From a virus (Duplodnaviria > Caudoviricetes), in the IMG/VR virus record IMGVR_UViG_3300026549_000071, positions 10,253-74,252 of that record: a DNA stretch of 64,000 nucleotides; one strand, given 5' to 3'. The position numbers were made by a program, and so were the translations under genes. The notes under the pieces were generated by a model. That model was not told the origin of the DNA. It was given only the letters and a program-made list of their open reading frames with translations, and did no database searches. The first letter of the stretch is position 1. The number at the start of each line of letters is the position of its first letter. Below, piece by piece: positions 9,947 through 59,939 of this stretch.

Positions 9947-9982
9947 AAAAAGAAGGACTTGGAAATTTCCAAGTCCTTCTTT
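9947..9982. terminator. Bidirectional intrinsic terminator
   Basis: AAAAGAAGGACTTGGAAA/TTTCCAAGTCCTTCTTTT palindrome. Confidence 0.85.
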
Positions 9983-10773
9983 TATAGGTAAAGACTTACC
10001 AATGGTAAGATATAGTTTTGGTAGTTATATCCAATATCAATATTTTCAATATCGTCTGTATCTTCTACCTCTAACATTTCATTTCCTTCTGGGTCATATA
10101 AGGAATACATGTTTCCTCTAGTTAACATACGATAATATTCGATGGGTAATTTCTTTCCTCGATAATTTCGTACGAAATCTCCCAGAATCATACTAGCATC
10201 TTTTCGAGAGGTTTCTTTCTCTCGTAACCTGCAAAAGCTCTCAATGAAATGCAGGAGATACTTTCCATGATAGTTTTTCACTTCATTGAGAGCATCTCCC
10301 TGACCAAGTCCTTTAATATCAATATTACTTGTAATTGTATTGATATAGAACTCGAGTTTATTGAGCCGAAGGTACGATGTATAGTGATTCTTTCCATTGA
10401 ATACAACTTCCCCAAAGGTCGTTTCATGACAGAAACGATTACATACAAAGATAGCATCCTTTTTAATCGAAATGATGTTCTCTTCGTCAAGTTCATTCTT
10501 CACAAGAAACCATTTTCTCGCTTCTGAGAAAGCTTTAGATAATTTCTTTGCAAATTCTTTATCTTTCCTCTGGTAGAGTCCTAGTTGAACACTTCTTGCT
10601 TTCTTATCCATCTTATCCAACTGATCTAACTTCTCTTTTGGAAGCAATTGAAATTGCTTACAGAGACTTGGACCAGCCGAATGGATATCATATTCTGTAA
10701 TATCCGTTCCAAATAAAAACTCAATGTTTTTGTTGATCCACAGACTTCTTTTGTACAGATCTGGATTCAGCAT
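9982..10773 (-). CDS. Small DNA polymerase B-like palm-domain protein, 263 aa
   Basis: EYDIHSAGPS (motif A-like), SIKKDAIFV (motif C-like), KNHY and IKGL downstream motifs. Confidence 0.55.
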   Translation of the reverse strand: MLNPDLYKRSLWINKNIEFLFGTDITEYDIHSAGPSLCKQFQLLPKEKLDQLDKMDKKARSVQLGLYQRKDKEFAKKLSKAFSEARKWFLVKNELDEENIISIKKDAIFVCNRFCHETTFGEVVFNGKNHYTSYLRLNKLEFYINTITSNIDIKGLGQGDALNEVKNYHGKYLLHFIESFCRLREKETSRKDASMILGDFVRNYRGKKLPIEYYRMLTRGNMYSLYDPEGNEMLEVEDTDDIENIDIGYNYQNYILPLVSLYL

Positions 10774-11992
10774 CTAGAATCCCCACTTCCAATACATTAA
10801 ATTCTTTATTCATTACAATCCTGTGTTTCCGATCTTCAATTGTAACGATATGACGTTTTACAATGAATACCCCAAAGGGATGAAAATTCTTCCTTGGAGG
10901 ATATTCTTTCTTTTGTTTCAAAGAGCGATATAACGTAGGAATGCTAATATCACGAATTGGATATTCCCATTTATCTATAGCAACCGCTTTATCGATAAAA
11001 CATGTATGCGTCATCTTGTAATACCGTTTCTTTGGAAGCACTGTTTTTTCATCAATGTAATCCCTTGTGAAACGATTCGTCACAACTTCCGAATACAGCA
11101 TATTGGAAAGTTGGTTTTCCTTATAGAAATCGAAATGCAGGATAACCATCTTCTTATGTGCTTCTAGAAGATTCAACTGACTCTGAAAGAGTTCACGAAG
11201 TTCTGGAATCTTCCTTACACAACGAAAATCATAGAGATATCCCTTAATACGAAAGATGGAACGCATCTCATTTGTCACGCGAGCATCTTTCATATAAGCA
11301 TATGTTAATTCATCGGATGTATAGATTTCCTCGAAAGGAAGATCTAGAATATCTCTTTGACGAACCTGCTGGATTTTCATTGGCATCATACCAAAGAATC
11401 CACCCATAGAGTTAAAGAATCCAGCGGGAACCGGAGACGGTGGTAAGTTATCATTTTGGATATCTTCGTCATCCTCATCATCATCGTCTTCGTCGTCATC
11501 TAAATACTCTGCATATTCTTCATCGTCGTCATCTTCATCCATGACGCTGTCAATGTATTCATAAAACATATGGACGACATCTTTGAGACGTTTCTTGATG
11601 AGATATTCGGCGGTTTCTTTTACTGGAACGGATGGTAATCCAGTATCTGATTTTTCATTCAAGCTGTCATGAAGCATTAGCATAATTTCCATGGTATCAA
11701 ATTGATCCAAGGTCATTTTCAATGCTTTCAAGTCAACCTTTTCATTCTCATTTGATTCTGAAATCTTTTTCTTTTTCACTGTCTTTTCTTTCTCCTTATG
11801 AGGCAATTTCATATCCGTTCGATACTTGTATATCTCATTTGCTGGAACCACAGCCATTTGATTTTGCTGTGGCAATGCAATTCGGATATTTCCATTCGCC
11901 TTTAATACATCTAGTATAATTTTCTTATCCATTTGCGTAATAACATCACGCTTTATTTTCTCAATCTCTTCTGGAGTAAATTTCCTATCCAT
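10721..11992 (-). CDS. Hypothetical protein with a long Asp/Glu tract, 423 aa
   Basis: AGAAAGGAG RBS; DEDDDDEEYAEYLDDDEDDDDEDDED tract. Confidence 0.8.
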   Translation of the reverse strand: MDRKFTPEEIEKIKRDVITQMDKKIILDVLKANGNIRIALPQQNQMAVVPANEIYKYRTDMKLPHKEKEKTVKKKKISESNENEKVDLKALKMTLDQFDTMEIMLMLHDSLNEKSDTGLPSVPVKETAEYLIKKRLKDVVHMFYEYIDSVMDEDDDDEEYAEYLDDDEDDDDEDDEDIQNDNLPPSPVPAGFFNSMGGFFGMMPMKIQQVRQRDILDLPFEEIYTSDELTYAYMKDARVTNEMRSIFRIKGYLYDFRCVRKIPELRELFQSQLNLLEAHKKMVILHFDFYKENQLSNMLYSEVVTNRFTRDYIDEKTVLPKKRYYKMTHTCFIDKAVAIDKWEYPIRDISIPTLYRSLKQKKEYPPRKNFHPFGVFIVKRHIVTIEDRKHRIVMNKEFNVLEVGILDAESRSVQKKSVDQQKH

Positions 11993-12109
11993 AAGAAATT
12001 CTCCTTTCTCGATAATTATTACCCTTATATAATTATCGCTCTTTTATGGAATCAAAATAAAAATAGAAGGATCATATATGCATCGTATGGTCCTTCTATT
12101 TTTTCTTCC

Positions 12110-12442
12110 TTATCCGAAGAGACTATCAAAGCGTGTATCTTTCTTTGGATGAACGACTTTTGTAGATTTGTGAAGCTGTTCATCATCTACACCGTCATAC
12201 TCCATATGCTTACGATCTTTATCCTGCTGGCGAACGAAGGCTTCTAAGTCATCTTCGTCGCCTTTTTCCAGTTTCTTGATGAAGGATTTAAAGCAACGTT
12301 TCATTGCTTTTTGCACCGCCTTATCTCCGTCATCGTACATCTGGAACATGCGACGGAACTTCCCAACAATCATAGGATTGAAGAGAAGTTCTTCCATTGC
12401 CTTCTTTTGATCTTTCCTTTTATTCTTCTTACTCATCTTCAT
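12110..12442 (-). CDS. Hypothetical highly charged protein, 110 aa
   Basis: ORF in a minus-strand operon with AAAGGA RBS. Confidence 0.75.
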   Translation of the reverse strand: MKMSKKNKRKDQKKAMEELLFNPMIVGKFRRMFQMYDDGDKAVQKAMKRCFKSFIKKLEKGDEDDLEAFVRQQDKDRKHMEYDGVDDEQLHKSTKVVHPKKDTRFDSLFG

Positions 12443-12460
12443 TTTGAATATATTCCTTTC

Positions 12461-13096
12461 TTATTCTTCATATGCATCTACTTCTTCCAAACGATTCTTT
12501 AGTTTCTTTGGAAGTTTCTTTCTCGTTTGCTCTGAAAGAACCTTGAGTAAAACCATGGTAGGATCAATTCCAAGTTCTTTCAGCTTATTGATCAGAAGAG
12601 TTTTCCGTTGCTTCAAGATACTTATAATCGTATCAGCATCTTGTGTCAACTTGCAATCTTTTCCTTTCAAATATGCCTTTGTTGAAATTGTTTTGATTCC
12701 GAATTCCATCTCAATGAATTCCTTCATCATCCGGAGGTATTCATATTCCACTTCTCCAGAAGAGCAAACAAAGAATACATCCTTATCATACAGCATTGCA
12801 TGACTAATGTATTCATTCAACAGAAACATACATTCTGGCCTCTGCAAATGACGGAAATATGCAGATTCATATTCCTTTCCAATGCCATACTTCGTATAGA
12901 CCAGAATAATAGATGCAGATGGAACCAATGGAACAACATCCATTAACATCGCATCATTTGGATACCATTTCTGTTTCATTTCCAGAGAGACATTGATAAA
13001 CTCTGAAGACTCCAGATCTGCTTTCTCCAGAATCTTCTTGAGTTTATCCCTCCCTTCTACGTTTACCAAATGCATCATACATTCCTCCATTAACAA
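12461..13096 (-). CDS. Hypothetical protein, 211 aa
   Basis: Operonic ORF overlapping the upstream stop. Confidence 0.75.
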   Translation of the reverse strand: MLMEECMMHLVNVEGRDKLKKILEKADLESSEFINVSLEMKQKWYPNDAMLMDVVPLVPSASIILVYTKYGIGKEYESAYFRHLQRPECMFLLNEYISHAMLYDKDVFFVCSSGEVEYEYLRMMKEFIEMEFGIKTISTKAYLKGKDCKLTQDADTIISILKQRKTLLINKLKELGIDPTMVLLKVLSEQTRKKLPKKLKNRLEEVDAYEE

Positions 13097-13800
13097 ATTT
13101 TAATCTTAATCTTTTTCCCATCATCGCGTGCATGCTGGACGAAATCTTTCTCATCCTTCCACATGCGATCACGAACCTCAATCGGATCGAACAACTTTCC
13201 ACAACGAGCACATACCAACTTGGAATAATCATTATTCCATTTGAGTGCATTACCACATTTCGTGCAATACATGATCTTTCGATCCAATGGATAAATATAA
13301 CCATAATCCAAAATTACGATTTCATCATTATTCCGATATCCGAAATTCGTGAAATTCTTGGAAATGGTTCCCATATCACAAAACAGATAATCCTTAGATA
13401 AAATCTCTAAGATATTCCGGATATTCTGTTTCGATTCAATGAACTCATCTTGCGTCATGAGATTTACATATTCTGCAACGGCTACGATACCATTGCATTC
13501 ATATGTCTTTGTGACATACGGCTGAAGTTCTTGACTATAATCAAACTCTGTCCAATTATCGCGTACGCCATAATTATCAAGAGCAATTTTGAATACATAG
13601 TCTTTATTCCGCACGGTCAACCGATTGGTTCCTGGACCAATTTCCGTGAATCCAAGATCCTTCAGAAGAAAGAGAATCTGACGAACCTTCTCATTATTAT
13701 TCGAGATATTTGGATCTCTCTGAATCTCCCAAATCTTCTGAAGAACTTCTTCACTGAATAACTCATGAATCCGATGACGATATTTCTTTTCTTCCATCAT
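13090..13800 (-). CDS. Protein kinase-like protein with C-terminal zinc ribbon
   Basis: IGPGTNR (Gly loop), VFKIA (VAIK-like), D...NFG catalytic loop, ILDYG (DFG-like), CTKCG...CARCG. Confidence 0.7.
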   Translation of the reverse strand: MMEEKKYRHRIHELFSEEVLQKIWEIQRDPNISNNNEKVRQILFLLKDLGFTEIGPGTNRLTVRNKDYVFKIALDNYGVRDNWTEFDYSQELQPYVTKTYECNGIVAVAEYVNLMTQDEFIESKQNIRNILEILSKDYLFCDMGTISKNFTNFGYRNNDEIVILDYGYIYPLDRKIMYCTKCGNALKWNNDYSKLVCARCGKLFDPIEVRDRMWKDEKDFVQHARDDGKKIKIKIC

Positions 13801-13808
13801 AGACTCCT

Positions 13809-14810
13809 TTACTCCATATTTGCCATCTTACGTAACTGATCTCCAGTTAATTGGAGCATATCCTTCTCAAACTCTGAGAATGTATGATATTCTCCATTAG
13901 CAAATTTCTTCATATAGCTATTGCTCTTCTTATGCTTCTTTTTCTTTCCATATTTATATCCACCAGATTCCTTCAGTTTCTTCTTACGAATCAACTTACG
14001 AGAACCTTTCGAAAGATGCTTCATTCCAACATGAAGTCCAATGCTCTCCAGATAATCCAGCGTCTGCATCTCATCCATTTGCTCTTTCGTCAGAGAAATG
14101 CCTTTATAGAAGACCAGTTTATCTGGGCTCTCTTCTTCATCAAACTCATGAAAGTCCTTCTTATGAAGATATTCTTTATACTTGGCTGTGAAGGAAACTT
14201 TCTTTGGTTTGTGATACATTTCACGAAGCATTCTCTTACGAGCATCTTTCTTTGAAATTTTGATGGGTTTGGTACGATTCGTATAGAACTTATTGATCAT
14301 ATCAATCTCATTCGAAATTTGATTTGCTACGTCAGACGAATCATTCAAATCCATCTTCATTGGATTCATTCCCTTAATGGGTTTGAAACTGAAAGCAAGT
14401 TTTACATGCTTCGGAATCTTCCAATTCGTCGGAATGACTGGCAGACCAAAATCATAATCACATGGAGTTTCCAATGGCATTCCATCATCAATATATTTGC
14501 GATTCTTCTTATTATGCTTCAATTTCGGGCAAAAAGATGGAACGTAATCTTTCACCATTCCAATCTGGAACAGGAATTTCAAACGTTTCATTCCACCATA
14601 TTTATCAATGAGCCATTGACCATATTCCGTATAGATTTCTTTTGCTCTGCACCATTCCCCAAAATCAGAATATTTCCGTTTCAGAGCTCTTACTTTATTG
14701 AGAAGTGGAGTATCTTCCCATTTCTCTTCATCATGATAATCATCTCCGAAATCATTAACCTGAGATTTGAACTCAGGATGATTCGGATATTCATATTCCT
14801 TTACTATCAT
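13809..14810 (-). CDS. Hypothetical Lys-rich early protein, 333 aa
   Basis: AAAGGAG RBS; early promoter motif at 14850-14859. Confidence 0.8.
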   Translation of the reverse strand: MIVKEYEYPNHPEFKSQVNDFGDDYHDEEKWEDTPLLNKVRALKRKYSDFGEWCRAKEIYTEYGQWLIDKYGGMKRLKFLFQIGMVKDYVPSFCPKLKHNKKNRKYIDDGMPLETPCDYDFGLPVIPTNWKIPKHVKLAFSFKPIKGMNPMKMDLNDSSDVANQISNEIDMINKFYTNRTKPIKISKKDARKRMLREMYHKPKKVSFTAKYKEYLHKKDFHEFDEEESPDKLVFYKGISLTKEQMDEMQTLDYLESIGLHVGMKHLSKGSRKLIRKKKLKESGGYKYGKKKKHKKSNSYMKKFANGEYHTFSEFEKDMLQLTGDQLRKMANME

Positions 14811-15169: not shown

Positions 15170-16105
15170 TCTAGTTACATAGAAATCGATTTTTGATTGA
15201 CATGATAATAGCGAAAATTGATCTATGAAAATCATGGATATTTAAATTCGTTGATGCACAAACTTAGACTCAATTTGTCTATATATGGGATAAGTACCAT
15301 TCAGTACGTGGAAACGTCAAAGACTTTGCGAGTGGGTTGGTGCTATACACGGGTCAATAATTTCGATCTTATCTCGGCAAATGAAGAGTGATCTTCATTT
15401 GTTTATCGATTCCTTAATAATTGCTCTTTCTGTCATAGAGAGAATAAGCATGGAGGAACGAATGTATCCTTCCCATGTAAAATCCTTAAGGATATCCAGA
15501 GTGAGGGATCATGAATGGGATAGAGGGCAATCTAAGATTCCAATTGAATAATCTTAGGTATTAAAACGTTTCCTCTTGAGCTTCGTGAACTTGCTAGGGA
15601 GAAGATTTGAATGGACCTCGATATCGAATGATGAGATCAATGAGTAAGTCATATTTGGATGATTATGATACGAATAGATATAAGACCAAACGAGCATTCT
15701 CATTCGGTTATGATTGGATAAAATGACAGTAGATATAGATCATAAGAAATTCGTCGTATAGTAAGATACAGCTTGATTTGTTGGTAGGCAATCATAGTAG
15801 AATTTCTTTGGTTAACTCATGATAAAACTCCCGTCATGTATATCGAGTATCGTTGCAATACGATACTTTAACAATGGGATGTGTAGATATATACTACCTA
15901 TCATATCGGTATAATATACAATCTATTTTGGATTTGTATATTCATCGTTCATTTAAGGTAAAGATGCATTGAAAAGACGCTAGAAAATTATCACTGGTTA
16001 TTTCATCCTATAGATGAATCTCACAAATAATTTGCCTTAAGGAGAAGAACGATTTTAACATACAGAAAATACAAAGGATGGATTCTTTCCATCCTTTGTA
16101 TTTTT
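15170..16105 (+). ncRNA. Candidate large (~900 nt) structured non-coding RNA
   Basis: No ORF of 60 aa or more; early promoter 15157-15166; terminator 16066-16105; many hairpins including GNRA-type loops and long-range helices. Confidence 0.7.
16066..16105 (+). terminator. Intrinsic terminator closing the large non-coding transcript
   Basis: AAAATACAAAGGATGGA/TCCATCCTTTGTATTTT followed by T-tract. Confidence 0.85.
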
Positions 16106-16148: not shown

Positions 16149-16643
16149 ATGAAAGGTAACGAAAAGTTTAAAATGTATACCTTATACGTTGGAAATATTC
16201 CAGTTGTATTTTGTGCAGATCGATGGCTAATTGAGCTGTATATTGTACAACGGAAGTTAGTCGAAAAGAAGTATCAATTTCATCAGGATACCTATGATAC
16301 GTCCATGTATAAAGAGTTTGATGATTATCTTGTATACTATTATGGTTATGCAGTCACGCAACGAGAGCTTAAATATATCGTCAACTCAACAGAGGAATAT
16401 GAATCGTTTCGGAAGTATAAGATTCATTCTCTTCAAGGATTTCTAGAGCGTTTTAATCATACATTAAAGAAATCGGAAAAGAAAGCACTTAAAGAAACGA
16501 TCAAAATCCTAAAGAAGTATACATGCGAAAATGATGACTTTATTGAGTCACAGATTGATACCATCCTAAACCATAATGATATGGTAAAGGATTATATGGA
16601 TGCAACGGATATGTTCCGAATGCATATGGAAGGAGAAATTTAA
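16149..16643 (+). CDS. Hypothetical protein, 164 aa
   Basis: AAGGAG RBS; CACA-N6-TA motif at 16117-16128. Confidence 0.8.
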   Translation: MKGNEKFKMYTLYVGNIPVVFCADRWLIELYIVQRKLVEKKYQFHQDTYDTSMYKEFDDYLVYYYGYAVTQRELKYIVNSTEEYESFRKYKIHSLQGFLERFNHTLKKSEKKALKETIKILKKYTCENDDFIESQIDTILNHNDMVKDYMDATDMFRMHMEGEI

Positions 16644-16644
16644 G

Positions 16645-17454
16645 TTGAGAGATATTAAACTCATTGCAATTGATGGATTAGATGGAACTGGGAAAACAAC
16701 CTTTGCAAAATTCTTATCCAATGATCTTCAATCGGATTATTATACGAATAAGAAGTATGATGCAAGATACCAGCATTTCCCAGTCTATGAATTACAATCT
16801 GGAAAGAAGATCAAAGATTTTCTCTTCCATGAACCAGAACCATACAAGAGAGAAAATATTCTCAAAATGATTGATCTGCAAGAAACGAATCGAATGGAAT
16901 GGACAGATCGTTTGATCTGGGATGACGTTTTAGTTCAAGATGACCGTCCATTGCTGATGATTGCAGATCGTTACATGCGTTCGAATGACATTTACAACGA
17001 AACAAGACTTCCGGATTGGAAGGAACGCTGTATCAATGCAGGAGAACGTGAATATGGAGATCATGCTATTCCAAGACCGGATCTCCAAATTTTTTGTTAC
17101 TGTAACAGAAATCTTCAACGGAAGCGTTTAGAAGCAAGAAAGAATTTGGATCAGTATGAAGCATTAGATCATCTAGATGAACTGAATGATCGTTATATTA
17201 CTTATTTGAAATGGTATATGACGATTGATCGTTTCAAGAGAAATACGGTATTTATTCCCATGCACTTATTTGATCGAGAATTTCTGAAAGAATCTCTGGA
17301 TAATAAAAAATGGAATACGTACTATAAGGAAATTTTGAAAGATTACCTTAGTATTTTCCGTAAGTACATTCTTTCTCAGGAAACGAAAGAAGAATTCGTG
17401 AAAGAAATCAATGAACTCCATGAAGAAGAATTCAATGCTTACTTGGAGTCATAA
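16645..17454 (+). CDS. tmk: Thymidylate (dTMP) kinase; TTG start inferred from RBS
   Basis: IAIDGLDGTGKTT P-loop, IADRY..SN motif, PRPDL.IF. Confidence 0.85.
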   Translation: MRDIKLIAIDGLDGTGKTTFAKFLSNDLQSDYYTNKKYDARYQHFPVYELQSGKKIKDFLFHEPEPYKRENILKMIDLQETNRMEWTDRLIWDDVLVQDDRPLLMIADRYMRSNDIYNETRLPDWKERCINAGEREYGDHAIPRPDLQIFCYCNRNLQRKRLEARKNLDQYEALDHLDELNDRYITYLKWYMTIDRFKRNTVFIPMHLFDREFLKESLDNKKWNTYYKEILKDYLSIFRKYILSQETKEEFVKEINELHEEEFNAYLES

Positions 17455-17540
17455 GAGTAGTTTATTAACAGCAAGAAACAAAGCATTAGGCAGTGTTTCT
17501 TGCTGTTGTTTCTCTACTACGGAAAGGATGTCAGAAACCG

Positions 17541-18308
17541 ATGAGGAAAATGATTCAAATTCATACCATTGGAGATGCTAATGTTTTAAACGCGTCGGTC
17601 CAAAATCCACCTGCAAGTTTTTATTTCATTGAGGGAAACGTTCTTTTTTTATTCGAGTATTCTCCCATGTGCGATGAATATATCCGTCTTCATAAGAAGG
17701 AATTCAAAGCATTGAAGGATATTATTCTCTGTTATACATCTCCAGTTTATATGAATGGAGTACAAGTACATCACTCAACCTTAGTACATGAATTCATTGA
17801 AGGAGTATTTCATTGTATTGATCATCATGATCGAATTCATGTACGCTTGATGACTGTATCTCCAAATTCGAATCCAATTATTATTGATTATGAAAAGCAA
17901 AAAAATGTCATTACTGAAAGAAATATTACGTCACAAGATCCCAATGCAAATATTGTATTTACGAATGAAAGTATCCTCTTTGTAGCAATGGATACCATAT
18001 ATACAAAGAAAGGATATTCTACCATTACCATTTGGAAACAGATGGAAGAAGGATATTGGAGTTGCCTTCTTCACTATACGGGCCGTTTTGGATCCTTGAA
18101 TGAATACACAGTAAAGTTCTTAATGGAACATCCACATGCGATTCTTGTGTATTATATCAATCGTTCGTTCTACAAATCAGATCATAACTTATCAGTAAAG
18201 GAACTCTGTTATCGAATTATGAATACCTTCGATGATATGAGAAATCCCATCACCTTGCTTGGATTTACGAATCCAAACGAGGCAAAATTTATTCGTGAGA
18301 GAATGTGA
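17541..18308 (+). CDS. Degenerate metallo-beta-lactamase-fold-like protein lacking HxHxDH
   Basis: N-terminal IHTIGDA..N..AS...LFLFE and later HYTG resemble an RNase Z-type MBL scaffold, but the metal ligands are absent. Confidence 0.35.
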   Translation: MRKMIQIHTIGDANVLNASVQNPPASFYFIEGNVLFLFEYSPMCDEYIRLHKKEFKALKDIILCYTSPVYMNGVQVHHSTLVHEFIEGVFHCIDHHDRIHVRLMTVSPNSNPIIIDYEKQKNVITERNITSQDPNANIVFTNESILFVAMDTIYTKKGYSTITIWKQMEEGYWSCLLHYTGRFGSLNEYTVKFLMEHPHAILVYYINRSFYKSDHNLSVKELCYRIMNTFDDMRNPITLLGFTNPNEAKFIRERM

Positions 18309-18367
18309 TGCTATGGTAAGTTAATGATCTGCCGCTTTATATCGTCACCGGAAAGTGAGTCACTGAT

Positions 18368-18709
18368 ATGAAAATGAGTAAGACCAAACAACGAAAGGAA
18401 TTGATCCTTCAACGTAAAAAAGATAAATATGGATATTTTGGTCTGTTCCGGATAGAAGAGGTTTATCCCTTCCAATTGTATATGCAAAGGTATAAGCACT
18501 TCAAACTAGCTGTAACCCAAGGAAATGAACTCATTCATATGATAAAAGACGGTTTACACGTCATTGTATGGTACGATGAAAAACTGCGGCAATGTTGCTC
18601 GAATCGATATGGAATGTGCATGTGGTATGTTTACCATACGTTTGATGAAGAATATATGGAAGACTTTTTAGCATATGAAAAGGAGCATGAAATTTATTAT
18701 GCAATCTAA
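18368..18709 (+). CDS. Hypothetical protein, 113 aa
   Basis: Operonic ORF upstream of thyX. Confidence 0.65.
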   Translation: MKMSKTKQRKELILQRKKDKYGYFGLFRIEEVYPFQLYMQRYKHFKLAVTQGNELIHMIKDGLHVIVWYDEKLRQCCSNRYGMCMWYVYHTFDEEYMEDFLAYEKEHEIYYAI

Positions 18710-19571
18710 AGTTAATGTAAAACGAGTAGGAAATGGTGAAGTTGTTTTAATTGCTGGTGGTGGAAAAGTATACAGCGATATTGCAGCAAGGTTCTGTCGT
18801 ACGGAGAAAGATGTTCATGATATCATTGCATCTCCGTATAATAAGAAACTGGTTCAAACTATTTTGGATTCTGGTCATTATGCTGCAACAGAATTTGACT
18901 ACTTCATCTTTGGAATCCAAGGTTACTCTCGTGTAACCGAAACTCAATTGGTTCGCAAGCGTTTAGCCAGTTATTTGATTAAATCTGGTCGTGCAGAAGA
19001 GCACGGGAAACGAAACTTTGATGTTGTTCTTCCGAAAGATCAGAGATTATTGGATCTTCCCAGAGGAGAAGTTCATCTGGATCCATCTCAAGTGATTGTG
19101 GAATATAAAGATGGAGTTAAGATCTCTTTGGAACAGGTGGTTCCATGTTCTACAGCAGAAGTGTATCTGAATAGTGCACAACTGTTAGATGCAATGGCAT
19201 CATTCTATGATGATGCTGTGTTGAATCATGGAATTAAAGAAGAAGACGCACGTTACTTTAAACCTCAAGCAACGGAGTTCAAAGCAATTATTGGAATGAA
19301 TGCCCATGCATTACGGGATTGGTTTAAGATTCGTTGCTGCAATCGAGCACAATCTGAAATCCGTGATCTTGCATGGAAAATGCTTCGTTTATGCAAAGAA
19401 GCTGCTCCAGATCTCTTTGAAGGTGCTGGACCTAGTTGTGTTGCACTTGGTCTTTGCCCAGAGATGGAACAGTGTGAGCAGAATAAAGGAAAGATTCCTA
19501 CATTGAAAGCATTTAAAGAAGCAAAAAATACGAAAGAATACAAAGACTTTGCAAAAGTCATGATGAAATAA
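18699..19571 (+). CDS. thyX: Flavin-dependent thymidylate synthase ThyX
   Basis: GH.AATEF, RKRLASYLIKSGR (RHRxxSxxxxSxR variant), EDARY..P, MNAHALRDWFKIRCCNRAQSEIRDLA. Confidence 0.9.
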   Translation: MQSKVNVKRVGNGEVVLIAGGGKVYSDIAARFCRTEKDVHDIIASPYNKKLVQTILDSGHYAATEFDYFIFGIQGYSRVTETQLVRKRLASYLIKSGRAEEHGKRNFDVVLPKDQRLLDLPRGEVHLDPSQVIVEYKDGVKISLEQVVPCSTAEVYLNSAQLLDAMASFYDDAVLNHGIKEEDARYFKPQATEFKAIIGMNAHALRDWFKIRCCNRAQSEIRDLAWKMLRLCKEAAPDLFEGAGPSCVALGLCPEMEQCEQNKGKIPTLKAFKEAKNTKEYKDFAKVMMK

Positions 19572-19972
19572 AAAAGATACCATAGATACGCCACCAACGT
19601 ATCTATGGTATCTTAGTTGTTTTTGAGTTAATAAGAACGACTCCAACGAAAAACCAAAATTCCCGAAAACAATTGAAATCGCCCTTATATTTCTCTGACG
19701 AAACGATAAGGAATGAAGCAAAATTATCTACGTGATGTATTGCCATGACCTCAGTCGTTTTTACTCGCCATTTGTTTGTGAGTTCTACCTACGTCATCTT
19801 AGATTTTAAACACATCCAATCTAAAAATCTTTACGATCCCACCCAAAGATCGTTTTCAATAGAACTTTCAGTCTTTAATTTTTATCTTCACACATTTATC
19901 GAAAGCTTTCAATAGTATGTTTACACTAATTAAAAAAATTTACATCTTCATCCTATGAACTTTCATTTCATG

Positions 19973-20270
19973 TATATATTATTACCATAAGATAATGAGC
20001 TAAGCATACTAGAAATGCTTAGCTCATAGCTCCCGAACTAGGAGCAGAAAGGAGGATCACCCAAATGGATAAATCCATCCTCTATTGGTGGCATAAACCG
20101 AATGCCATCGAAGGGCGTTTCGATAGAGATGCCCAATTGAAAGAGGCTATTGAACAAGTAAAGCGTGCACAACGTTTATTCGATAGCCTTGAGGAGAAGG
20201 ATAAGAAAGTTTCTTAATCCTTAACTCAGAAAGAAAGAAGCTATTCTAGTTACGGCTTCTTTCTTTTTTG
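19973..20270 (+). repeat. ACTAG-loop cassette, copy B
   Basis: Promoter 19973-19982, hairpin 19995-20027, hairpin 20029-20045, ORF 20065-20217, terminator ~20230-20270 with TTCTAGT loop. Confidence 0.9.
20065..20217 (+). CDS. 50-aa cassette protein B (MDKSILYWWHKPNAIEGRFDRDAQLKEAIEQVKRAQRLFDSLEEKDKKVS), not in the ORF track
   Basis: AGAAAGGAGG RBS; shares LYWWHKPxAIEGRFDRxAQLKEA with the 9684-9836 product. Confidence 0.85.
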   Translation: MDKSILYWWHKPNAIEGRFDRDAQLKEAIEQVKRAQRLFDSLEEKDKKVS

Positions 20271-20332
20271 TCTGTAGTATTTTAAAAATTCTTTGAAATA
20301 TATATTATTAAAGTAACAGGAGGTGAAAACCT

Positions 20333-20833
20333 ATGTTTATTCTCTTGCTATCTGGAACTGATATTGTCAGTTCTACCTATGAAGCAAATTTAAGAGAATA
20401 TGCTCGTTTATTGCGGATAAAGAATCCTATGATCTATCAAGTCACAAATCAGCAATATGATACGATTTGCAAGAAATATCGTTACGTTGAATCTGTGGAA
20501 AAGCAATCAGAAGAAAAGAATCCTCTTTACTGTACGGATTCTGATCTAGAAATGATTAGCAATGTCATGGAAGATGACCTAACGAAATTTGCATTGAAAT
20601 TGCATAAAGTTGAAAAATGGACTTCGATGTTTCGTGGAAAATCTGCAAAACGACTAAGAAAAGCAATTCATGCTTTTCTCAAAGAACGAGTCGAAAACAA
20701 AGAATTTTCAATTGATGAATACGATGAAGTAGGAAGATTGATGGAAAAAGTCAAACTTCGGGATTATGCAAAATCAATCCTCAAACGTAGTTATAAAGAC
20801 GTTTATGGATTAGGAGGAGAAGAAGATGCTTGA
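20333..20833 (+). CDS. Hypothetical early protein, 166 aa
   Basis: AGGAGGTG RBS; early promoter 20299-20308. Confidence 0.8.
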   Translation: MFILLLSGTDIVSSTYEANLREYARLLRIKNPMIYQVTNQQYDTICKKYRYVESVEKQSEEKNPLYCTDSDLEMISNVMEDDLTKFALKLHKVEKWTSMFRGKSAKRLRKAIHAFLKERVENKEFSIDEYDEVGRLMEKVKLRDYAKSILKRSYKDVYGLGGEEDA

Positions 20834-21380
20834 CCCCGATGAAAAACAAAAACTTCGTCCGTATTATTTTCGAATGTTAAAACGACTCGGTTGGAATGTG
20901 GTTTACGATAATAACAAGAAGCTGACGAATACATTGGTTGATGTATCTCTTATGCTTCAAAGGGAGAAAGAGGATGATAACCATAAGAAACATACGGAGT
21001 ATGGATTCTTAGAGGTTCCTTATACGTCTCCCTGTTCATATGAAAAGTTTGGAGAGCAACGCCTTCATCCGAATAATGGAGAATTTGCAAAATTGGTCAA
21101 CTACGTTGATAGCTTAATTTATCCATATGATTTGGACGACGTTGTGTGTCAGTTGCTTCACTTAGGTTATAGTATTACACAGGTTTATACGGTACAAAAC
21201 GGAAAACTTGCGTTAAAACTAAACCGAAAGATGATTGAAGGACTGATTGCAGACTTCGTTAAGAAGGGTTCTCCCTTACTGAATAATGAGCAACTTCGTA
21301 GACCTCACAAAATTAAAGAGCGTCGACCAATCAAGACATTTGTAAATCCAGATGTCTTCTTTGGTCGTAACTCCCAATAA
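20826..21380 (+). CDS. Hypothetical protein, 184 aa
   Basis: AGGAGG RBS; overlaps the upstream stop. Confidence 0.8.
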   Translation: MLDPDEKQKLRPYYFRMLKRLGWNVVYDNNKKLTNTLVDVSLMLQREKEDDNHKKHTEYGFLEVPYTSPCSYEKFGEQRLHPNNGEFAKLVNYVDSLIYPYDLDDVVCQLLHLGYSITQVYTVQNGKLALKLNRKMIEGLIADFVKKGSPLLNNEQLRRPHKIKERRPIKTFVNPDVFFGRNSQ

Positions 21381-21417
21381 ATTTTTAGTAGTTTTTAGAA
21401 GAAGGAGAAATGTAGTC

Positions 21418-21723
21418 ATGGCTAAGAAGAAAGAACAGAAATTCCTCAAGAAGCTCCGCAAGAGCGTTTTCAACAGTCGCAGCGAACTTGCACAATACAT
21501 CGCTGACGACGAGGACAAACGTTGGTACAAGGAAAAGAAGGAAGATATCAAAGATCTCACAAGGGATCTCATCAATGATCCATTCCAGATCATGAAGAAA
21601 GATCCTTCCAACCCAGAGCTCATGAAACCGACGGACGTGAAAGAGCTTGCTCTTCGTGTAGCACAGCATGAGAAGCTTTTGCTTGCTCTTGCATATTGCT
21701 ACATTTACGAGAACAATAAGTAA
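21418..21723 (+). CDS. Hypothetical charged protein, 101 aa (MAKKKEQK...)
   Basis: AAGGAG RBS; C-ending codon bias. Confidence 0.8.
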   Translation: MAKKKEQKFLKKLRKSVFNSRSELAQYIADDEDKRWYKEKKEDIKDLTRDLINDPFQIMKKDPSNPELMKPTDVKELALRVAQHEKLLLALAYCYIYENNK

Positions 21724-21859
21724 AATCAATGAATAGGTCGAGTTTAAGTATTGGATCACTGACCGATTGGCACTCCAATATGCGAACCCGACATATACAC
21801 AAAAAGAAGTTTGGAGTTGATATCACCAAACTTCTTTTTTTACCGTAATACGTTCATTT

Positions 21860-21871
21860 AACAATGATGTA
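21860..21871 (+). promoter_or_regulatory. Late/middle-type promoter motif NACA-N6-TA (representative copy)
   Basis: Found in intergenic gaps upstream of genes at 2062, 16117, 21860, 24960, 28076, 28589, 35645, 37003, 38630, 40644, 45631, 59902 (+) and 24450, 33600, 56115, 58135 (-); resembles the AR9 nvRNAP AACA-N6-TA consensus. Confidence 0.65.
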
Positions 21872-21903
21872 AAAATATCTAATGTAAAAGAGGTGAAATC
21901 GAA

Positions 21904-22584
21904 ATGCGAATTCCACGTATTGACCATTATGATACTTCTATGGAAGAAGAAACCATAGAAGTTTCCGACTTCCAATTTGAACCGAGACATTATGACCTAG
22001 GAAATGATAAGCAAAAGTTCAAATATATTTCTACAATTGAACGGATGTGCCGTTCATCCAAAGAATACAAAGATTTGATTGCTTACTTGCGAAATTCCCT
22101 TGGGATGAGTTTCTGTTCCTTCTTCCATAAAGTCAATCAAAAGAATTTCGATAAAGCTCGGATTCGTATTGAAATTCATCATGAGCCGTTTACTCTCTAT
22201 GATATCGTAGCTGTAGTTTTGAATCATCGTCTTGATGAAGGAGAAGATCATGACATGCTAACCATTTGTGATGAAGTCATGAAACTTCATTATATGGGTT
22301 ATGTAGGATTGATTCCTCTTTCCACTACGGTACATGAGTTGGTTCATTCTGGAAAATTGTTTATTCCCTTGCAGTTCATTGATATCGGTTTCAATAACTT
22401 TTATAATATATATAAAGAAACGATCAAAGGAATGGATGGACTTTGCGATATGTTACAGGCAAAGGTTGCATTGAGTAAGCAATTTGAAGAGAACCCGGAT
22501 GAGTTTATGGCAATTCTCAAGAAGAAGTATATTTACGTTGTGAATGATGGATACGATAGTATTCCGGATAAGATCATAAAGTAA
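21904..22584 (+). CDS. HNH-like protein, paralog of 23802-24431
   Basis: C.FF..V...IEIHHEPFTLYDI...LIPLSTTVHELVH; AACA-N6-TA at 21860-21871. Confidence 0.6.
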   Translation: MRIPRIDHYDTSMEEETIEVSDFQFEPRHYDLGNDKQKFKYISTIERMCRSSKEYKDLIAYLRNSLGMSFCSFFHKVNQKNFDKARIRIEIHHEPFTLYDIVAVVLNHRLDEGEDHDMLTICDEVMKLHYMGYVGLIPLSTTVHELVHSGKLFIPLQFIDIGFNNFYNIYKETIKGMDGLCDMLQAKVALSKQFEENPDEFMAILKKKYIYVVNDGYDSIPDKIIK

Positions 22585-22606
22585 AAGAGTTCTTCAGCCT
22601 TTCGAG

Positions 22607-22896
22607 TATATATTATATACTTAATAAAATGGATCAAGCAGACTAGAACTGCTTGATCCATCGTTCCCGAACTAGGAACAGAAAGGCTGGTGAGTCCCAT
22701 GACTAAGGAATCCCCTTGGGAGAAGTTACTCCCAAATGAAAAACTTGTCCCCACAAGTTTGACAAAACAGGCGATCCTTGATTGTGCTGACGTTCTGCGT
22801 ACGCATAAAATGATTCGCCTGATTCCTGGATGGTGTAAATAACACTATTTAGGAAATGAAGGAAGAAGTATTTCTAGTATGCTTCTTTCTTTTTTG
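22607..22896 (+). repeat. ACTAG-loop cassette, copy C
   Basis: Promoter 22607-22616, hairpin 22629-22661, hairpin 22663-22679, ORF 22699-22842, terminator ~22858-22896 with TTCTAGT loop. Confidence 0.9.
22699..22842 (+). CDS. 47-aa cassette protein C (MTKESPWEKLLPNEKLVPTSLTKQAILDCADVLRTHKMIRLIPGWCK), not in the ORF track
   Basis: Occupies the same cassette position as proteins A and B; AGAAAGG RBS; unrelated sequence. Confidence 0.7.
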   Translation: MTKESPWEKLLPNEKLVPTSLTKQAILDCADVLRTHKMIRLIPGWCK

Positions 22897-23006
22897 TTGC
22901 CTGATATTTCAAAATAAATTTGGAATATATATCATACCTTAGAATTAATGGCCCGTAACATTAGTTCTATTTTGGTATTTTAATTTGAAAGGATATGTGA
23001 TTTACA

Positions 23007-23381
23007 ATGGCAAAATATATTATGAATGCGGTCTCTGGTAACATGTTCGATCTCAGCAAGGAATTCGATCTTTGCTGGAAGCCATTGAGCTTGAACGATG
23101 TTAAGAAACTTCTGAAACAGGGGGACTGGAAGTCCGTGCTCGGGCACGATGACATCGCAAATCTTTTGAGTGAAATGACCGGTTATCATCTTGAGAAAAA
23201 CCGTGTCAATAATACGCTCGAATTCGGTGATAGTGCAATTCTTGCACAGTACAAAGGGCCGAGACTCGAAGAGGGAGCGACGAAGCTTCCGAAAGGTGCA
23301 ACTATCCAGTTTGCACTCGTGTATCCCGCAGAGCATATTAGCCGCCAATATATTGGCAACGGTGAAACGCTCGAAGGATAA
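23007..23381 (+). CDS. acrIII-1: AcrIII-1 / DUF1874 family ring nuclease (anti-type III CRISPR)
   Basis: SVLGH47..IANLLS...NR66V..L..GD..ILAQ..GPR86LEE89G fits the DUF1874 GH / NR / RLxEG signature; near-consensus early promoter TATATATCAT at 22926-22935. Confidence 0.85.
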   Translation: MAKYIMNAVSGNMFDLSKEFDLCWKPLSLNDVKKLLKQGDWKSVLGHDDIANLLSEMTGYHLEKNRVNNTLEFGDSAILAQYKGPRLEEGATKLPKGATIQFALVYPAEHISRQYIGNGETLEG

Positions 23382-28606: not shown

Positions 28607-28697
28607 GGAGCGGTACTCAAGCGGTCGAAGAGGTCAGTCTTGAAAACTGAGAGACCATTCATTTGGTGCGTGGGTTCGAATCCTACTCGCTCCGCCA
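28607..28697 (+). tRNA. tRNA-Ser (UGA anticodon)
   Basis: GGAGCGG/TCGCTCC acceptor stem, TCAGT-CTTGAAA-ACTGA anticodon arm, long variable arm, TTCGAAT T-loop, CCA. Confidence 0.95.
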
Positions 28698-28703
28698 TTT
28701 TAT

Positions 28704-28777
28704 TCTGGCGTAGTTTAATGGTAAAGCACTTCCCCTCCAAGGAAGATTTGTGGGTTCAATCCCCATCGCCAGATCCA
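28704..28777 (+). tRNA. tRNA-Gly (UCC) with atypical C33
   Basis: TCTGGCG/CGCCAGA acceptor, CTTCC-CCTCCAA-GGAAG anticodon arm, U73, CCA. Confidence 0.85.
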
Positions 28778-28783
28778 TTTTAT

Positions 28784-28859
28784 AGCCCTTTAGCCAAGTT
28801 GGTAAAGGCATAGCGCTTTGACCGCTAGATCGCTGGTTCGATCCCAGCAAGGGTTGCCA
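28784..28859 (+). tRNA. tRNA-Gln (UUG)
   Basis: TAGCG-CTTTGAC-CGCTA anticodon arm, TTCGATC T-loop, CCA. Confidence 0.95.
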
Positions 28860-28863
28860 TTTT

Positions 28864-28934
28864 AGGGTCATAGTTTAATGGTAGAACAACGGTCTCCAAA
28901 ACCGTTAGTCATCGTTCGAGTCGATGTGATCCTG
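28864..28934 (+). tRNA. tRNA-Trp (CCA), 3' CCA not encoded
   Basis: AGGGTCA/TGATCCT acceptor, ACGGT-CTCCAAA-ACCGT anticodon arm, G73. Confidence 0.93.
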
Positions 28935-29061
28935 CACACATGCCCCAATTAAGGGACTTTATATATGTTAGATGGTAATTTCATTTTGTTTGACAAATTT
29001 CTGAACCGCTCTTTGCTCATGGATCTCAGAAATACTCCCTTTCATGAAATTACTTTCTATA

Positions 29062-29110: not shown

Positions 29111-30271
29111 TTATCCTTTTTCATACATATCTTTCAACTGATGTTTCAACTCTACAAGGAGTTTCTGTGAAAACATCGTTGGAAGAATACCAATCGTTTG
29201 ACGTGCAAGAACCGATGTTGCAGGAATGCAAGACTCAATTGGCTCATTTGGACGATCAAGAGTATAGGGAGCTTGATCATCTGGAATGACCAAGGCTACT
29301 GTTCCTTTCAAGGCCAGATGATGAGCCATTTTGTCACCAGGTTTCATATTATCAGTAAATTTGATATAGAACTCAATGATGACTCCGTGTTCAATCTTAT
29401 ATCCTTTGACAGCACCTGCTGCATTTGGTTTTACAGGTCCATCAATCTCATAGAAGGTACTTCCTTGATCGGATGGATCGGTAATCTTATATTTCCGAAT
29501 CAGTTTCTTCTTCTCACGAATTCCCTTCCAGTATTTATCAACGATACTACCAAGAGATTTCGAGAGATCAGAGATTTCTTCTGTGCTATAGATGCGAATC
29601 TCATCTACAACCCCAGAGTATTTTGAGCTCAACGTATTCTTTGCCATGGATTTAATATCTTCCCGAAGATCTTTACCAATACCACGGAGCAAGCGGTTTA
29701 CGGATTCTTCATCTGCGGATTGCTCATACGTAATTAATGGCTGACCAACGAGAATCTTATCTCCGACGTTTACAATCTGGGATACCGTAGCATTCGGACC
29801 AAGAATGAGATGCTTTTGCATAACCATCTCCGTTCCCATACGTTTACTTAAACCTTCCGTAATCATATTGGAATCTTCAAAGGTCGCAAATGAACTCATA
29901 ATGGCAATCTTAGAAAGCGTACCAAGATTGAACTTGGCTCCATCATAATGATAGCTATAGTAATCCTTATTCTGTGCGAGAATATCATCTTTCTTAAAAC
30001 GTTGACCTACCTTATACATAGGCAACATCTTATTTTCCAGATAGAATCCACCACCGGCATTCTTCACCATAATGCCATTCAGATTAATGGCTTCATATTT
30101 CCCATTCTTATATTCTGCTACCATCATATTCGTCTTTTTATCAAATTCCACAATTTTACCATCGTCCTGTGCTTTAATGACAAAGTCTTTCGATGCCATA
30201 TAAGGCATCGCTTTTTCAATGCCAGTAGATAACAGAACCGGGCACATATCTTTTACTGGAATCAAATGTTT
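29111..30271 (-). CDS. rpoB: RNA polymerase beta subunit N-part, exon 2
   Basis: KHLIPV, LGTLSKIAIMSSFATFEDS, PGDKMAHHLALKG motifs; joins exon 1 in frame as ...MASKQN|KHLIPV... Confidence 0.88.
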   Translation of the reverse strand, partial: KHLIPVKDMCPVLLSTGIEKAMPYMASKDFVIKAQDDGKIVEFDKKTNMMVAEYKNGKYEAINLNGIMVKNAGGGFYLENKMLPMYKVGQRFKKDDILAQNKDYYSYHYDGAKFNLGTLSKIAIMSSFATFEDSNMITEGLSKRMGTEMVMQKHLILGPNATVSQIVNVGDKILVGQPLITYEQSADEESVNRLLRGIGKDLREDIKSMAKNTLSSKYSGVVDEIRIYSTEEISDLSKSLGSIVDKYWKGIREKKKLIRKYKITDPSDQGSTFYEIDGPVKPNAAGAVKGYKIEHGVIIEFYIKFTDNMKPGDKMAHHLALKGTVALVIPDDQAPYTLDRPNEPIESCIPATSVLARQTIGILPTMFSQKLLVELKHQLKDMYEKG

Positions 30272-30569
30272 CGTTGTATTCACATGGGTCGTTAATCCAT
30301 GCAGTTCTCTTATGAACTTCTATATGTCACCATATAGTCCAGACTATATCTTTATTCCTATTACTAGGAATTGCTCCATTTCGATTTAAGGGATTTTCAC
30401 CCACTCACTTGAGCCCTACTCCTATTGCCGAATTTCACGGCTCCATTTGGATAGTCGTTGAACCTTCTCTTTCGAGCTTGGCTGCTGATTGTCTCTTTTT
30501 AAATAGAGAGTTCCCAGCAATTAAGAGCTAGGAGAATCATAGATTACTCTATGAAACGAACTAAATTTA
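30272..30569 (-). ncRNA. Group I intron (IA-type, 298 nt, no homing endonuclease ORF)
   Basis: P AATTGCTGGGAA, Q AATCAGCAG, R GTTCAACGACTA, S AAGATATAGTCT; P7 GACTA/TAGTC; P1 with U.G at exon-end AAT|TAA; terminal G before AAA CAT. Confidence 0.93.
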
Positions 30570-59825: not shown

Positions 59826-59939
59826 AGATATTCACGACCTTTCTTTATTAAGAAGTTCCAAAAAAAAAACGATTTCCGTATTATGAATTTTACTCTTCTT
59901 TGACAGTCAAATAAAGTAAGGAAAGAAGGTGACTTTATC

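Follow-up and report, generated by a model that had tools for sequence, protein, structure and literature searches.

A 64,000-nucleotide (nt) stretch of a Caudoviricetes contig (positions 10,253 to 74,252 of IMG/VR record IMGVR_UViG_3300026549_000071; hereafter the window) carries three copies of a compact cassette in which an early promoter, two hairpins, a Shine-Dalgarno (SD) sequence, a micro-open reading frame (micro-ORF), and an intrinsic terminator follow one another; a fourth copy lies on the contig that continues the same genome. Comparison of the copies gives good support to the view that they form a small family of early micro-gene units, the leader and terminator of which constitute an RNA-level module under strong selection. 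The loop of the first hairpin is, in the three window copies, the exact complement of a heptamer in the terminator loop, and a loop-loop (kissing) contact between the two ends of the same mRNA is plausible.

A common plan in four paralogous units

The cassettes share a common plan: the motif TATATATTAT; 12 nt; a 33-nt hairpin (hairpin 1, with a 13-bp stem and the loop ACTAGAA); 1 nt; a 17-nt hairpin (hairpin 2, with a 5-bp stem and the loop CGAACTA); AGAAAGG(AGG); the micro-ORF; and a terminator with TTCTAGT in its loop. Loop 1 measures 7 nt throughout, and the terminator loop 7 nt in copy C and 11 nt in copies A, B, and D. Direct reading of the sequence agrees with a preliminary description, made from the letters of the window alone, that the geometry of its three units (A on the minus strand, B, and C) is identical. 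The same description counted three copies in all, which is one too few: copy D is present at 54723-54782 (-) of IMGVR_UViG_3300032007_000084 (G001, 65.6 kb), bases 1-1109 of which correspond to window positions 62892-64000 with 99.8% identity over 1109 bp. This overlap identifies the two records as adjacent pieces of one genome, 138.7 kb when merged, and D is thus a further paralog of that genome rather than an independent relative. The micro-ORFs encode 47 to 51 amino acids (aa) across the four units (47 to 50 aa in A, B, and C). A terminator and a TATATATTAT promoter stand both before and after each unit, and the gene downstream of each unit is served by a separate early promoter 30 to 45 nt past the cassette terminator. 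The promoter, previously counted as part of the cassette, is indeed present in each unit, but it is the general early promoter of this phage (19 exact copies of TATATATTAT in the window, versus 0.6 expected) and not specific to the cassettes; the two-hairpin leader is restricted to the cassettes and is missing from the other TATATATTAT promoters.

The window is part of a 74-kb virus contig with an estimated completeness of about 30%, and the sequencing runs that contain the phage are bovine-gut metagenomes; in all, the phage is present in roughly ten studies. Because its split RNA polymerase beta subunit is ~31% identical to those of Staphylococcus phage SA1, Listeria phage LPJP1, and Bacillus phages PBS1/AR9, we assign it, from sequence comparison, to the jumbo phages as a distant AR9-like (AR9/PBS1-like) member.

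Selection on stem structure and on loop sequence

All cells of the leader alignment (5 distinct leader sequences) hold standard pairs across the 18 paired positions (100%), and six of the 18 pairs show compensatory change on both sides, a number reached by none of 500 shuffles; slid controls were 30 to 43% paired. The stems therefore differ and yet stay paired, as was noticed at the outset. Minimum-free-energy folds of the whole predicted transcripts retain hairpin 1, hairpin 2, and the terminator in every copy, and leave the SD unpaired in all cases.

Among the paralogs, neutral flanks are saturated (0.37 to 0.42 identity), and the stems retain 0.78 to 0.90 identity with compensation. Invariant positions comprise six of seven in loop 1, all seven in loop 2, all seven of AGAAAGG, all seven of the terminator core, and all 13 of the T tail. 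Taken over the loops, 20 of 21 positions are invariant, the sole change being a C>U in loop 1 of D; the earlier statement that the loops are fixed is thus accurate for A, B, and C and fails at this one position in D. Strain comparisons give the same picture, with 0/58 and 1/58 changes in the leaders versus 11 to 33% in adjacent spacers and ORFs: the leader of C (22629-22686), for example, has 0/58 differences from that of a strain variant (contig L032), and its flanking spacers differ by 25%. Values of 26% and 29% for the upstream stretch 19600-19972 and for part of the 166-aa gene were set aside, as they are probably due to a truncated alignment. The combination of invariant loops, compensated stems, and saturated flanks indicates sequence-specific purifying selection on the loops and structural selection on the stems.

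Complementarity between leader and terminator loops

Loop 1 (ACUAGAA) is the exact complement of UUCUAGU in the terminator loops of A, B, and C, as first described, and the complementarity is strictly 7 nt long, since the flanking nucleotides are mismatched in all four copies. Our own scan of the window yielded 48 hairpin-plus-T-run sites, ~35 of which were judged credible, and only the three cassette terminators have TTCTAGT in the loop, which extends to the whole window a restriction that had been claimed for the terminators inspected previously. The merged 138.7-kb genome contains 804 hairpin/terminator-like pairs spaced no more than 600 nt apart, and among these the longest exact loop complement is 1 to 4 nt in nearly all, 5 nt in 14, 6 nt in one, and 7 nt in four, the last being cassettes A, B, and C plus one weak intragenic hairpin that matches the terminator of A by chance.

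The two elements have the properties of kissing loops, namely, stable hairpins, whole-loop complementarity (a full 7 nt against 7 nt in C), and accessibility. Opening either loop costs 0.03 to 0.21 kcal/mol in the ensemble, compared with -6.0 kcal/mol for the duplex. Within transcripts A, B, and C, no segment pairs better with the terminator core than loop 1 does; the second-best is AACUAGGA of hairpin 2, which is partly buried in a stem. In D, where loop 1 reads AUUAGAA, a G.U pair with the unchanged terminator loop is still formed, and the duplex amounts to -3.7 kcal/mol.

Loop 2 has no complement inside the unit, and occurrences of its reverse complement, TAGTTCG, are at chance level. A hairpin with the geometry of hairpin 2 and a different stem, GGATC-CGAACTA-GATCC, lies at window 63603-63619 (-) (also G001 ~712-728) inside a 162-aa ORF, at approximately chance level (roughly 0.1 expected). 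Three candidate explanations of the loop sequences were dropped: a link to tRNAs or anticodons (the phage tRNAs, Ser, Gly, Gln, and Trp, are unrelated to CUA/UAG), rarity of CTAG (which is not avoided, with 67 observed versus 65.6 expected), and a preQ1-I likeness of the terminator loop, which has no Rfam support.

Strand asymmetry of the paired elements

Several pairs in the cassettes are of the G.U type: in hairpin 1, a G-C pair has become G.U in one strain variant (contig L012), and the terminators of A and B contain U.G pairs. Such pairs form on the sense strand alone; read on the opposite strand, they are mismatches. Because of this asymmetry, the position of the hairpins inside the predicted transcript directly 5' of the SD, and the tolerance of the loop change in D as a G.U pair, an RNA-level function is favoured over a DNA-level one by the sequence evidence. 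The leader and terminator nonetheless resemble each other in inverted orientation: searched with the leader model, the terminators match on their reverse strand (E, 1e-4 to 1e-2), and 20 of 21 positions agree between the top of hairpin 1 of A and the reverse complement of the C terminator. Hairpin 1 has an invariant AAGC...GCTT, GAAG...CTTC is generic in the terminators of this phage, and the inverted match within each unit is confined to the 7-nt loop.

Early promoter and predicted transcripts

The early promoter of AR9, which is used by the virion RNA polymerase, has been defined experimentally as AAATATATATTAT-(6N)-G+1 (PMC5312081). TATATATTAT with its flanks matches this consensus, and the seventh base after it is A or G at most sites of this phage. 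By the AR9 rule, cassette transcripts would start 6 nt before hairpin 1 (placing the hairpin at +7), and the injected virion RNA polymerase would be the enzyme that transcribes them.</replace><value></value><why>g, clause on what was not mapped</why></edit>
<edit><find>We take the extended SD to be complementary to the 3' end of Firmicutes 16S rRNA, the host of this phage, and hence its 16S, being as yet not identified.</find><replace>We take the extended SD to be complementary to the 3' end of Firmicutes 16S rRNA. Such a hairpin 6 nt past the predicted start, combined with a strong SD (AGAAAGGAGG), invites comparison with the 5' stabilizer hairpin and stabilizing Shine-Dalgarno (STAB-SD) of Bacillus. 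We take the extended SD to be complementary to the 3' end of Firmicutes 16S rRNA, the host of this phage, and hence its 16S, being as yet not identified. Other early promoters of this phage are also followed immediately by strong hairpins, of unrelated sequence and with other loops (window 53835 [-], with a 16-bp stem; 9582 [-]; and contig L024, 1706-1745), and a 5'-terminal hairpin seems to be recurrent, although not universal, in its early transcripts.

Contigs assembled from RNA libraries, which belong to two studies, span 20009-20240 and 20018-20240 in B and 22687-22845/22866 in C. Past B, the RNA contigs restart at 20334/20335, and one DNA contig continues through; these breaks are a weak hint of discrete transcripts, given that assembled RNA contigs carry no information on strand or true RNA ends and that DNA carry-over is possible. 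In one RNA library, Illumina adapter sequence is fused to cassette C at 22687 (just 3' of AGAAAGG) and at 22872 (the first base of the terminator loop), and the RNA contig of the second study likewise begins at 22687. These junctions may be processed RNA ends or library artefacts. In both RNA libraries, the contig over C far exceeds its neighbours in word depth; as such depth does not allow genes to be ranked, it was left out of account.

Micro-ORFs between the conserved ends

Synonymous changes are in excess in the cassette ORFs. The ORF of C differs from that of the strain variant on contig L032 by 10 synonymous versus about 6 nonsynonymous changes, and comparison of A, B, and D over their conserved N-terminal halves gives 7 to 10 synonymous changes versus 4 to 7 codons with an amino-acid change. 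This excess indicates that the cassette ORFs are real genes. The lack of detectable DNA similarity between the C ORF and those of A and B (z, 0.3 to 1.5, versus 12 for A-B) confirms the initial view that C carries an unrelated ORF, so that, as judged from these scores, unrelated cargo sits between conserved ends.

The cargo proteins have no match in Pfam, PHROGs, or the Atlas, and the neighbouring proteins are blank in Pfam and PHROGs. When a profile of the micro-protein was compared with 1.8 billion representatives, it recovered its own clusters only, plus three weak matches (E, 5e-10 to 5e-4) to long proteins of 459 to 1461 aa with several matched stretches each. The AlphaFold model of the A/B/D protein is a single long helix, unlike a Rop-type helical hairpin; with a pLDDT of 69.5, it is too weak for use in structure searches.

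Distribution, strain variation, and the next-closest lineage

Pattern scans of IMG/VR for further copies returned only D, and a scan of Joint Genome Institute (JGI) metagenomes returned D again and one variant of B, with two further matches due to chance. Four matches in GTDB genome contigs (16 to 18 bits with the leader model) were likewise attributable to chance, and none of the 104 matches in IMG/VR to a pattern of loop 1, terminator loop, and T run had both motifs in hairpins. BLASTN of the unit against 50,697 GenBank phage records gave noise only (E = 4), and a 166-aa neighbour protein has no relative in IMG/VR. Rfam 15, searched at E ≤ 10 over 19950-22920, leaves the 5' leader uncovered and gives chance matches to the terminator of B (best, 26 bits versus a gathering threshold of 88). 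The preliminary description had proposed searches for further copies and for an existing Rfam family: no such family was found, and there are no copies outside the lineage in IMG/VR, JGI, GTDB, or GenBank phages. From these scans, the element appears to be confined to one uncultured rumen phage lineage.

Within this lineage, four contigs from different samples (L012, 1341-1522 [-]; L032, 1-150; L033, 1-150; and L034, 1-120) represent strains with 91% identity in which cassette B has an internal deletion of ~90 nt. The ORF loses its start codon and its conserved N-terminal half in this deletion, which spares both hairpins, the SD, and the terminator loop, possibly leaving a noncoding RNA of ~190 nt.

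The next-closest lineage, in which a neighbour protein is 54% identical, is known from ~17 kb of Logan contigs (L026 and L036). At its three sites that correspond by synteny to A, B, and C, no cassette is found, and these sites are otherwise different as well: past the 263- and 226-aa genes (the sites of A and C, respectively), there is a terminator and early promoter only, and downstream of ThyX (the site of B) there is other sequence. At this last site (L026, 1978-2066), the outer stem of hairpin 1 of B (ATGAGCTAAG...CTTAGCTCA) surrounds a 66-nt structured insert instead of a 7-nt loop, without an early promoter upstream; the cassette may have left this structure behind or arisen from it. 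Relative to L026/L036, the block from the 333- to the 263-aa gene and that from the thymidylate kinase gene to the 226-aa gene (window 9982-14810 and 16149-22584) are inverted in relative orientation; cassettes A and C lie at the outer ends of the inverted blocks, and C is at a breakpoint.

The DNA-level proposal of the preliminary description had called for empty sites or circular excised forms. Neither these nor joints of a whole-unit deletion were found in DNA contigs of two further samples, in which rare forms drop out during assembly; the same ends around other cargo, where they occur in these contigs, are those of the paralog D.

A proposed RNA control module and its alternatives

The explanation that we consider first, tentatively and at slightly less than an even chance, is that the four paralogous early units share an RNA control module in which an intramolecular kiss joins the ends of the mRNA. 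Each unit would give rise to an mRNA of ~280 nt for a tiny protein: hairpin 1, ~6 nt past the predicted start, would cap the 5' end, hairpin 2 would abut the extended SD, and the intrinsic terminator would cap the 3' end. Loop 1 (ACUAGAA) would pair with the terminator loop (UUCUAGU) over 7 bp, and this kiss would couple stability and translation, as does the 5'/3'-untranslated-region (UTR) pairing of the hbs mRNA, which limits RNase access. More speculatively, and as a possibility that we regard as doubtful, the leader and terminator could be a portable "regulon tag" by which kiss-closed early mRNAs place unrelated micro-genes under common control of lifetime or translation, which persists as a small RNA after loss of the ORF and is maybe one of a wider, undescribed class of phage RNAs with pairing between a 5' hairpin loop and the terminator loop.

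Several observations weigh against the kiss. Because the four copies descend from one ancestor, their complementarity counts once and not four times, with a probability of about 1 in 1000 for that one event. One natural variant, that of D, touches the paired letters and weakens the duplex to the -3.7 kcal/mol noted above, and a helix of seven A/U-rich pairs is of marginal stability unless Mg2+ or a protein assists it. An alternative partner for the terminator loop is AACUAGGA of hairpin 2, with which it could form 8 bp, one of them G.U, in A, B, and D; its partner is therefore ambiguous. Finally, the scans found no relatives outside the lineage in which covariation of the two loops could show.

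The loops could also be read without any contact between the two ends, by a trans-acting protein or RNA of phage or host that recognizes CUAG-centred loops and serves as a repressor, nuclease, or stabilizer. A palindromic CUAG core does occur in all three loops (ACUAGAA, GAACUAG, and UUCUAGU), and loop 2 is invariant yet has no complement in the unit. Operators bound by proteins typically combine covarying stems with loops of specific sequence. We nevertheless think such a factor unlikely, as a shared protein motif would not need the complementarity to reach 3 nt past the CUAG core, the core of loop 1 has become UUAG in D with the unit intact and its ORF coding, and there is no candidate binding protein, given that cargo and neighbours are blank in Pfam and PHROGs. 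If, on the other hand, the complementarity has no function, the cassette would be an ordinary 5' stabilizer plus an ordinary terminator, and its loops would be a relic of an inverted duplication, a coincidence, or sequences kept alike by gene conversion. The single ancestral event, the strong hairpins with other loops at the start of other early transcripts, and the generic AAAGAAG...CTTCTTT terminator stems of this phage would all agree with this. We judge it distinctly unlikely, however: a plain stabilizer or terminator does not depend on its loop sequence, yet all but one of the 21 loop positions are unchanged amid saturated neutral sites; gene conversion would homogenize the stems too, which differ with compensation; and a 7-nt loop complement has a chance of ~1 in 800 pairs.

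Two further explanations appear decidedly improbable, and to a similar degree. One is that the kiss acts cotranscriptionally on the terminator and tunes read-through into the next gene, for which there are precedents in the kissing loop of the guanidine-IV riboswitch (PMC11611296) and the zipper-type attenuator of pLS20 (PMC13401043). Hairpin 1 and the terminator could form an extended duplex of -26.4 kcal/mol in C and -13 to -20 kcal/mol in the other copies, and the leader model has its reverse-strand matches to the terminators (E, 1e-4 to 1e-2), but the separate hairpins sum to -31 to -35 kcal/mol and are 8 to 20 kcal/mol more stable than the joint duplex. Read-through control moreover seems unnecessary, since the downstream genes have early promoters of their own 30 to 45 nt past the terminator; a translated ORF of 150 nt separates the partners, and the RNA contigs of two studies end at the terminator of B (weak evidence). 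The other explanation, a DNA element, would make the ACTAGAA-loop hairpins on opposite strands the inverted ends of an exchangeable cassette, moved by a hairpin-binding enzyme or by recombination between the repeated regulatory parts, similar to that of the promoter early stem-loop (PeSL) modules. It draws on the unrelated cargo of C between the same ends, on the syntenic sites of the next lineage (no cassette at A, B, or C, and terminator plus early promoter only at A and C), on the location of C at a rearrangement breakpoint relative to that lineage, and on the placement of every unit between a terminator and another early promoter, as in PeSL (PMC2839356). Against it stand the G.U pairs of hairpin 1 and the terminators, which are mismatches on the other strand, and an inverted match of just 7 nt per unit. 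No transposase or recombinase is nearby and no target duplication was seen; DNA contigs of two samples have no whole-unit deletion or circle joint, the sole joint being a paralog with other cargo; and the only strain polymorphism is the internal deletion in B, which spares both ends. An RNA function also accounts for the purifying selection on the loops and SD.

Of the two alternatives put forward in the preliminary description, the RNA-level one gains from covarying stems, sense-only G.U pairs, and invariant, accessible loops, with a kissing contact as a plausible part of it; the DNA-level one retains the unrelated cargo of C, the missing cassettes in the next lineage, and the reverse-strand matches as indirect support and is weakened by the G.U pairs and by the lack of a recombinase, target duplication, and empty-site or circle joint in the DNA contigs.

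Features of the cassettes and their surroundings

Table 1. Elements of the three cassettes in the window (window coordinates)
Feature	Position	Strand	Basis or remark
B early promoter, TATATATTAT	19973-19982	+	Predicted start site ~19989; AR9 early motif match
B hairpin 1, 13-bp stem, loop ACTAGAA at 20008-20014	19995-20027	+	Covariation, fold; leader model R1, 91 bits
B hairpin 2, 5-bp stem, loop CGAACTA at 20034-20040	20029-20045	+	Sequence reading, covariation
B extended SD, AGAAAGGAGG	20046-20055	+	AGAAAGG part invariant in all copies
B micro-ORF, 50 aa, paralog of A and D ORFs	20065-20217	+	Synonymous excess in N-terminal half
B intrinsic terminator, 13-bp stem, 11-nt loop with TTCTAGT (20244-20250), T run	20230-20271	+	Terminator scan, fold
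C early promoter	22607-22616	+	Motif scan
C hairpin 1, loop at 22642-22648	22629-22661	+	Covariation, leader model
C hairpin 2	22663-22679	+	Covariation, leader model
C SD, AGAAAGG	22680-22686	+	Invariant among copies
C micro-ORF, 47 aa, unrelated to A/B/D	22699-22842	+	Substitution pattern versus strain L032
C terminator, 14-bp stem, 7-nt loop exactly TTCTAGT (22872-22878), T run	22858-22898	+	Terminator scan, fold
A early promoter	9918-9927	-	Motif scan
A hairpin 1, loop at 9892-9886	9905-9873	-	Covariation, leader model
A hairpin 2	9871-9855	-	Covariation, leader model
A SD, AGAAAGGAG	9854-9846	-	Sequence reading
A micro-ORF, 50 aa	9684-9836	-	Substitution pattern
A terminator, 13-bp stem, loop with TTCTAGT (9654-9648), T run	9626-9668	-	Terminator scan

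At the Rfam gathering threshold, the whole window contains nothing beyond one group I intron and four tRNAs. The intron (RF00028, 90.7 bits; window 30320-30578 [-]) splits the RNA polymerase beta-subunit gene into ORFs at 29111-30283 and 30567-33566, and a 76-nt stretch of it is repeated with 92% identity in G001 (59889-59958). The tRNA cluster (window 28607-28935) comprises genes for Ser-TGA, Gly-TCC, Gln-TTG, and Trp-CCA. An ORF-free region of ~900 nt (window 15170-16105), with an early promoter before it (15157) and a strong terminator after it (16067), has no Rfam match at the gathering threshold. Directly 3' of cassette C, a 124-aa protein (window 23007-23381) has a STIV_B116-like Pfam match (PF08960; E, 2.3e-10), a family that includes the AcrIII-1 ring nucleases. 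Thymidylate kinase (PF02223) and ThyX (PF02511) are predicted at window 16600-17454 and 18675-19571 from Pfam matches on the syntenic genes of a near-identical contig (L006). Uracil replaces thymine in the DNA of AR9 and PBS1; unlike these phages, the phage of the window may use thymine.

Comparison with known systems

The preliminary description knew of no described element with this architecture, which holds with respect to Rfam 15; functional analogues nevertheless exist in hbs, icaR, and the guanidine-IV riboswitch. Among systems of other kinds, ColE1 RNA I/RNA II and R1 CopA/CopT are trans-acting antisense transcripts with stable hairpins, fully complementary 7-nt loops, and complementary stems. 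The cassettes resemble these kissing complexes in their stable hairpins and complementary 7-nt loops (both exactly 7 nt in C) and differ from them in that both hairpins lie on one strand of one mRNA and the nucleotides flanking the heptamer mismatch, contrary to what is expected of an antisense pair. The put antitermination RNA of HK022 has two promoter-proximal stem-loops with one unpaired nucleotide between them, which act on RNA polymerase, and its geometry is similar to that of the cassette leader (33-nt hairpin, 1 nt, 17-nt hairpin).

In the guanidine-IV (mepA) riboswitch, a kissing loop dissolves the terminator (PMC11611296), and pLS20 uses a zipper-type attenuator (PMC13401043); in both, as proposed for the cassettes, an upstream hairpin contacts a terminator element via loop-loop or extended pairing. 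Both are compact leaders that precede the regulated gene, whereas in the cassettes the ORF lies between the partners and the terminator, the hairpin of which bears the complementary loop, ends the unit. The icaR mRNA of Staphylococcus aureus has an anti-SD-like 3'-UTR motif that pairs with its own 5' UTR at the SD, leading to repression and RNase III cleavage (PMC3868564). The cassette terminator loop (UUUCUAG in C) is likewise similar to the 3' tail of 16S rRNA, and loop 1 (UAGAAA) to the upstream part of an extended SD, but the best partner in the cassettes is the loop upstream of the SD, and the SD is unpaired in all folds.

In the variable regions of T4-type phages, PeSL modules, which combine an early promoter and a stem-loop, flank small ORFan genes (Arbiol et al. 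2010, PMC2839356). The cassettes share with them a repeated composite of early promoter and terminator beside ORFan genes, with cargo that varies among copies. PeSLs have sigma-70 promoters with a G/C-rich stem-loop around the promoter, whereas the cassette promoter is of the virion RNA polymerase type; a structured 5' leader with invariant loops and 5'-3' loop complementarity, both present in the cassettes, are missing from PeSLs. PeSL-type mini-circles or repeat-bounded indels were not seen for the cassettes in the DNA contigs of two samples or among close strains.

Although the reach of the present findings is limited by a narrow distribution (one uncultured rumen phage lineage), they offer a first look at cis-regulatory RNA in the early transcripts of jumbo-phage virion RNA polymerases, a barely explored field, and would mark several ORFan micro-proteins encoded beside an AcrIII-1-like gene as early products under shared control. 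Because the cassettes covary naturally and have clean boundaries, loop-swap experiments on them are straightforward. In bacterial mRNAs, communication of the 5' end with the 3' end has been described for only a few single genes (hbs, icaR, and hok); here, it would be modular and multicopy and would involve two hairpin loops. By analogy, the closest proven counterpart of the proposed kiss is the hbs mRNA of Bacillus subtilis, in which a 14-bp pairing of the 5' and 3' UTRs, proven by compensatory mutants, restrains RNases Y and J1 (PMC5737220; Braun, Durand & Condon 2017). Like the cassettes, hbs is a short Firmicute-type mRNA with two 5' hairpins, a strong SD, and a 5' segment complementary to the terminator region of the same mRNA (in the cassettes, 7 nt in A, B, and C, with one G.U in D), and its pairing restricts the access of RNases and couples stability with translation (PMC5737220). 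The two have no sequence similarity, and they differ in that hbs pairs 14 nt of linear sequence beside its hairpins in a single host gene, whereas the cassettes present two complementary hairpin loops in a multicopy phage module.

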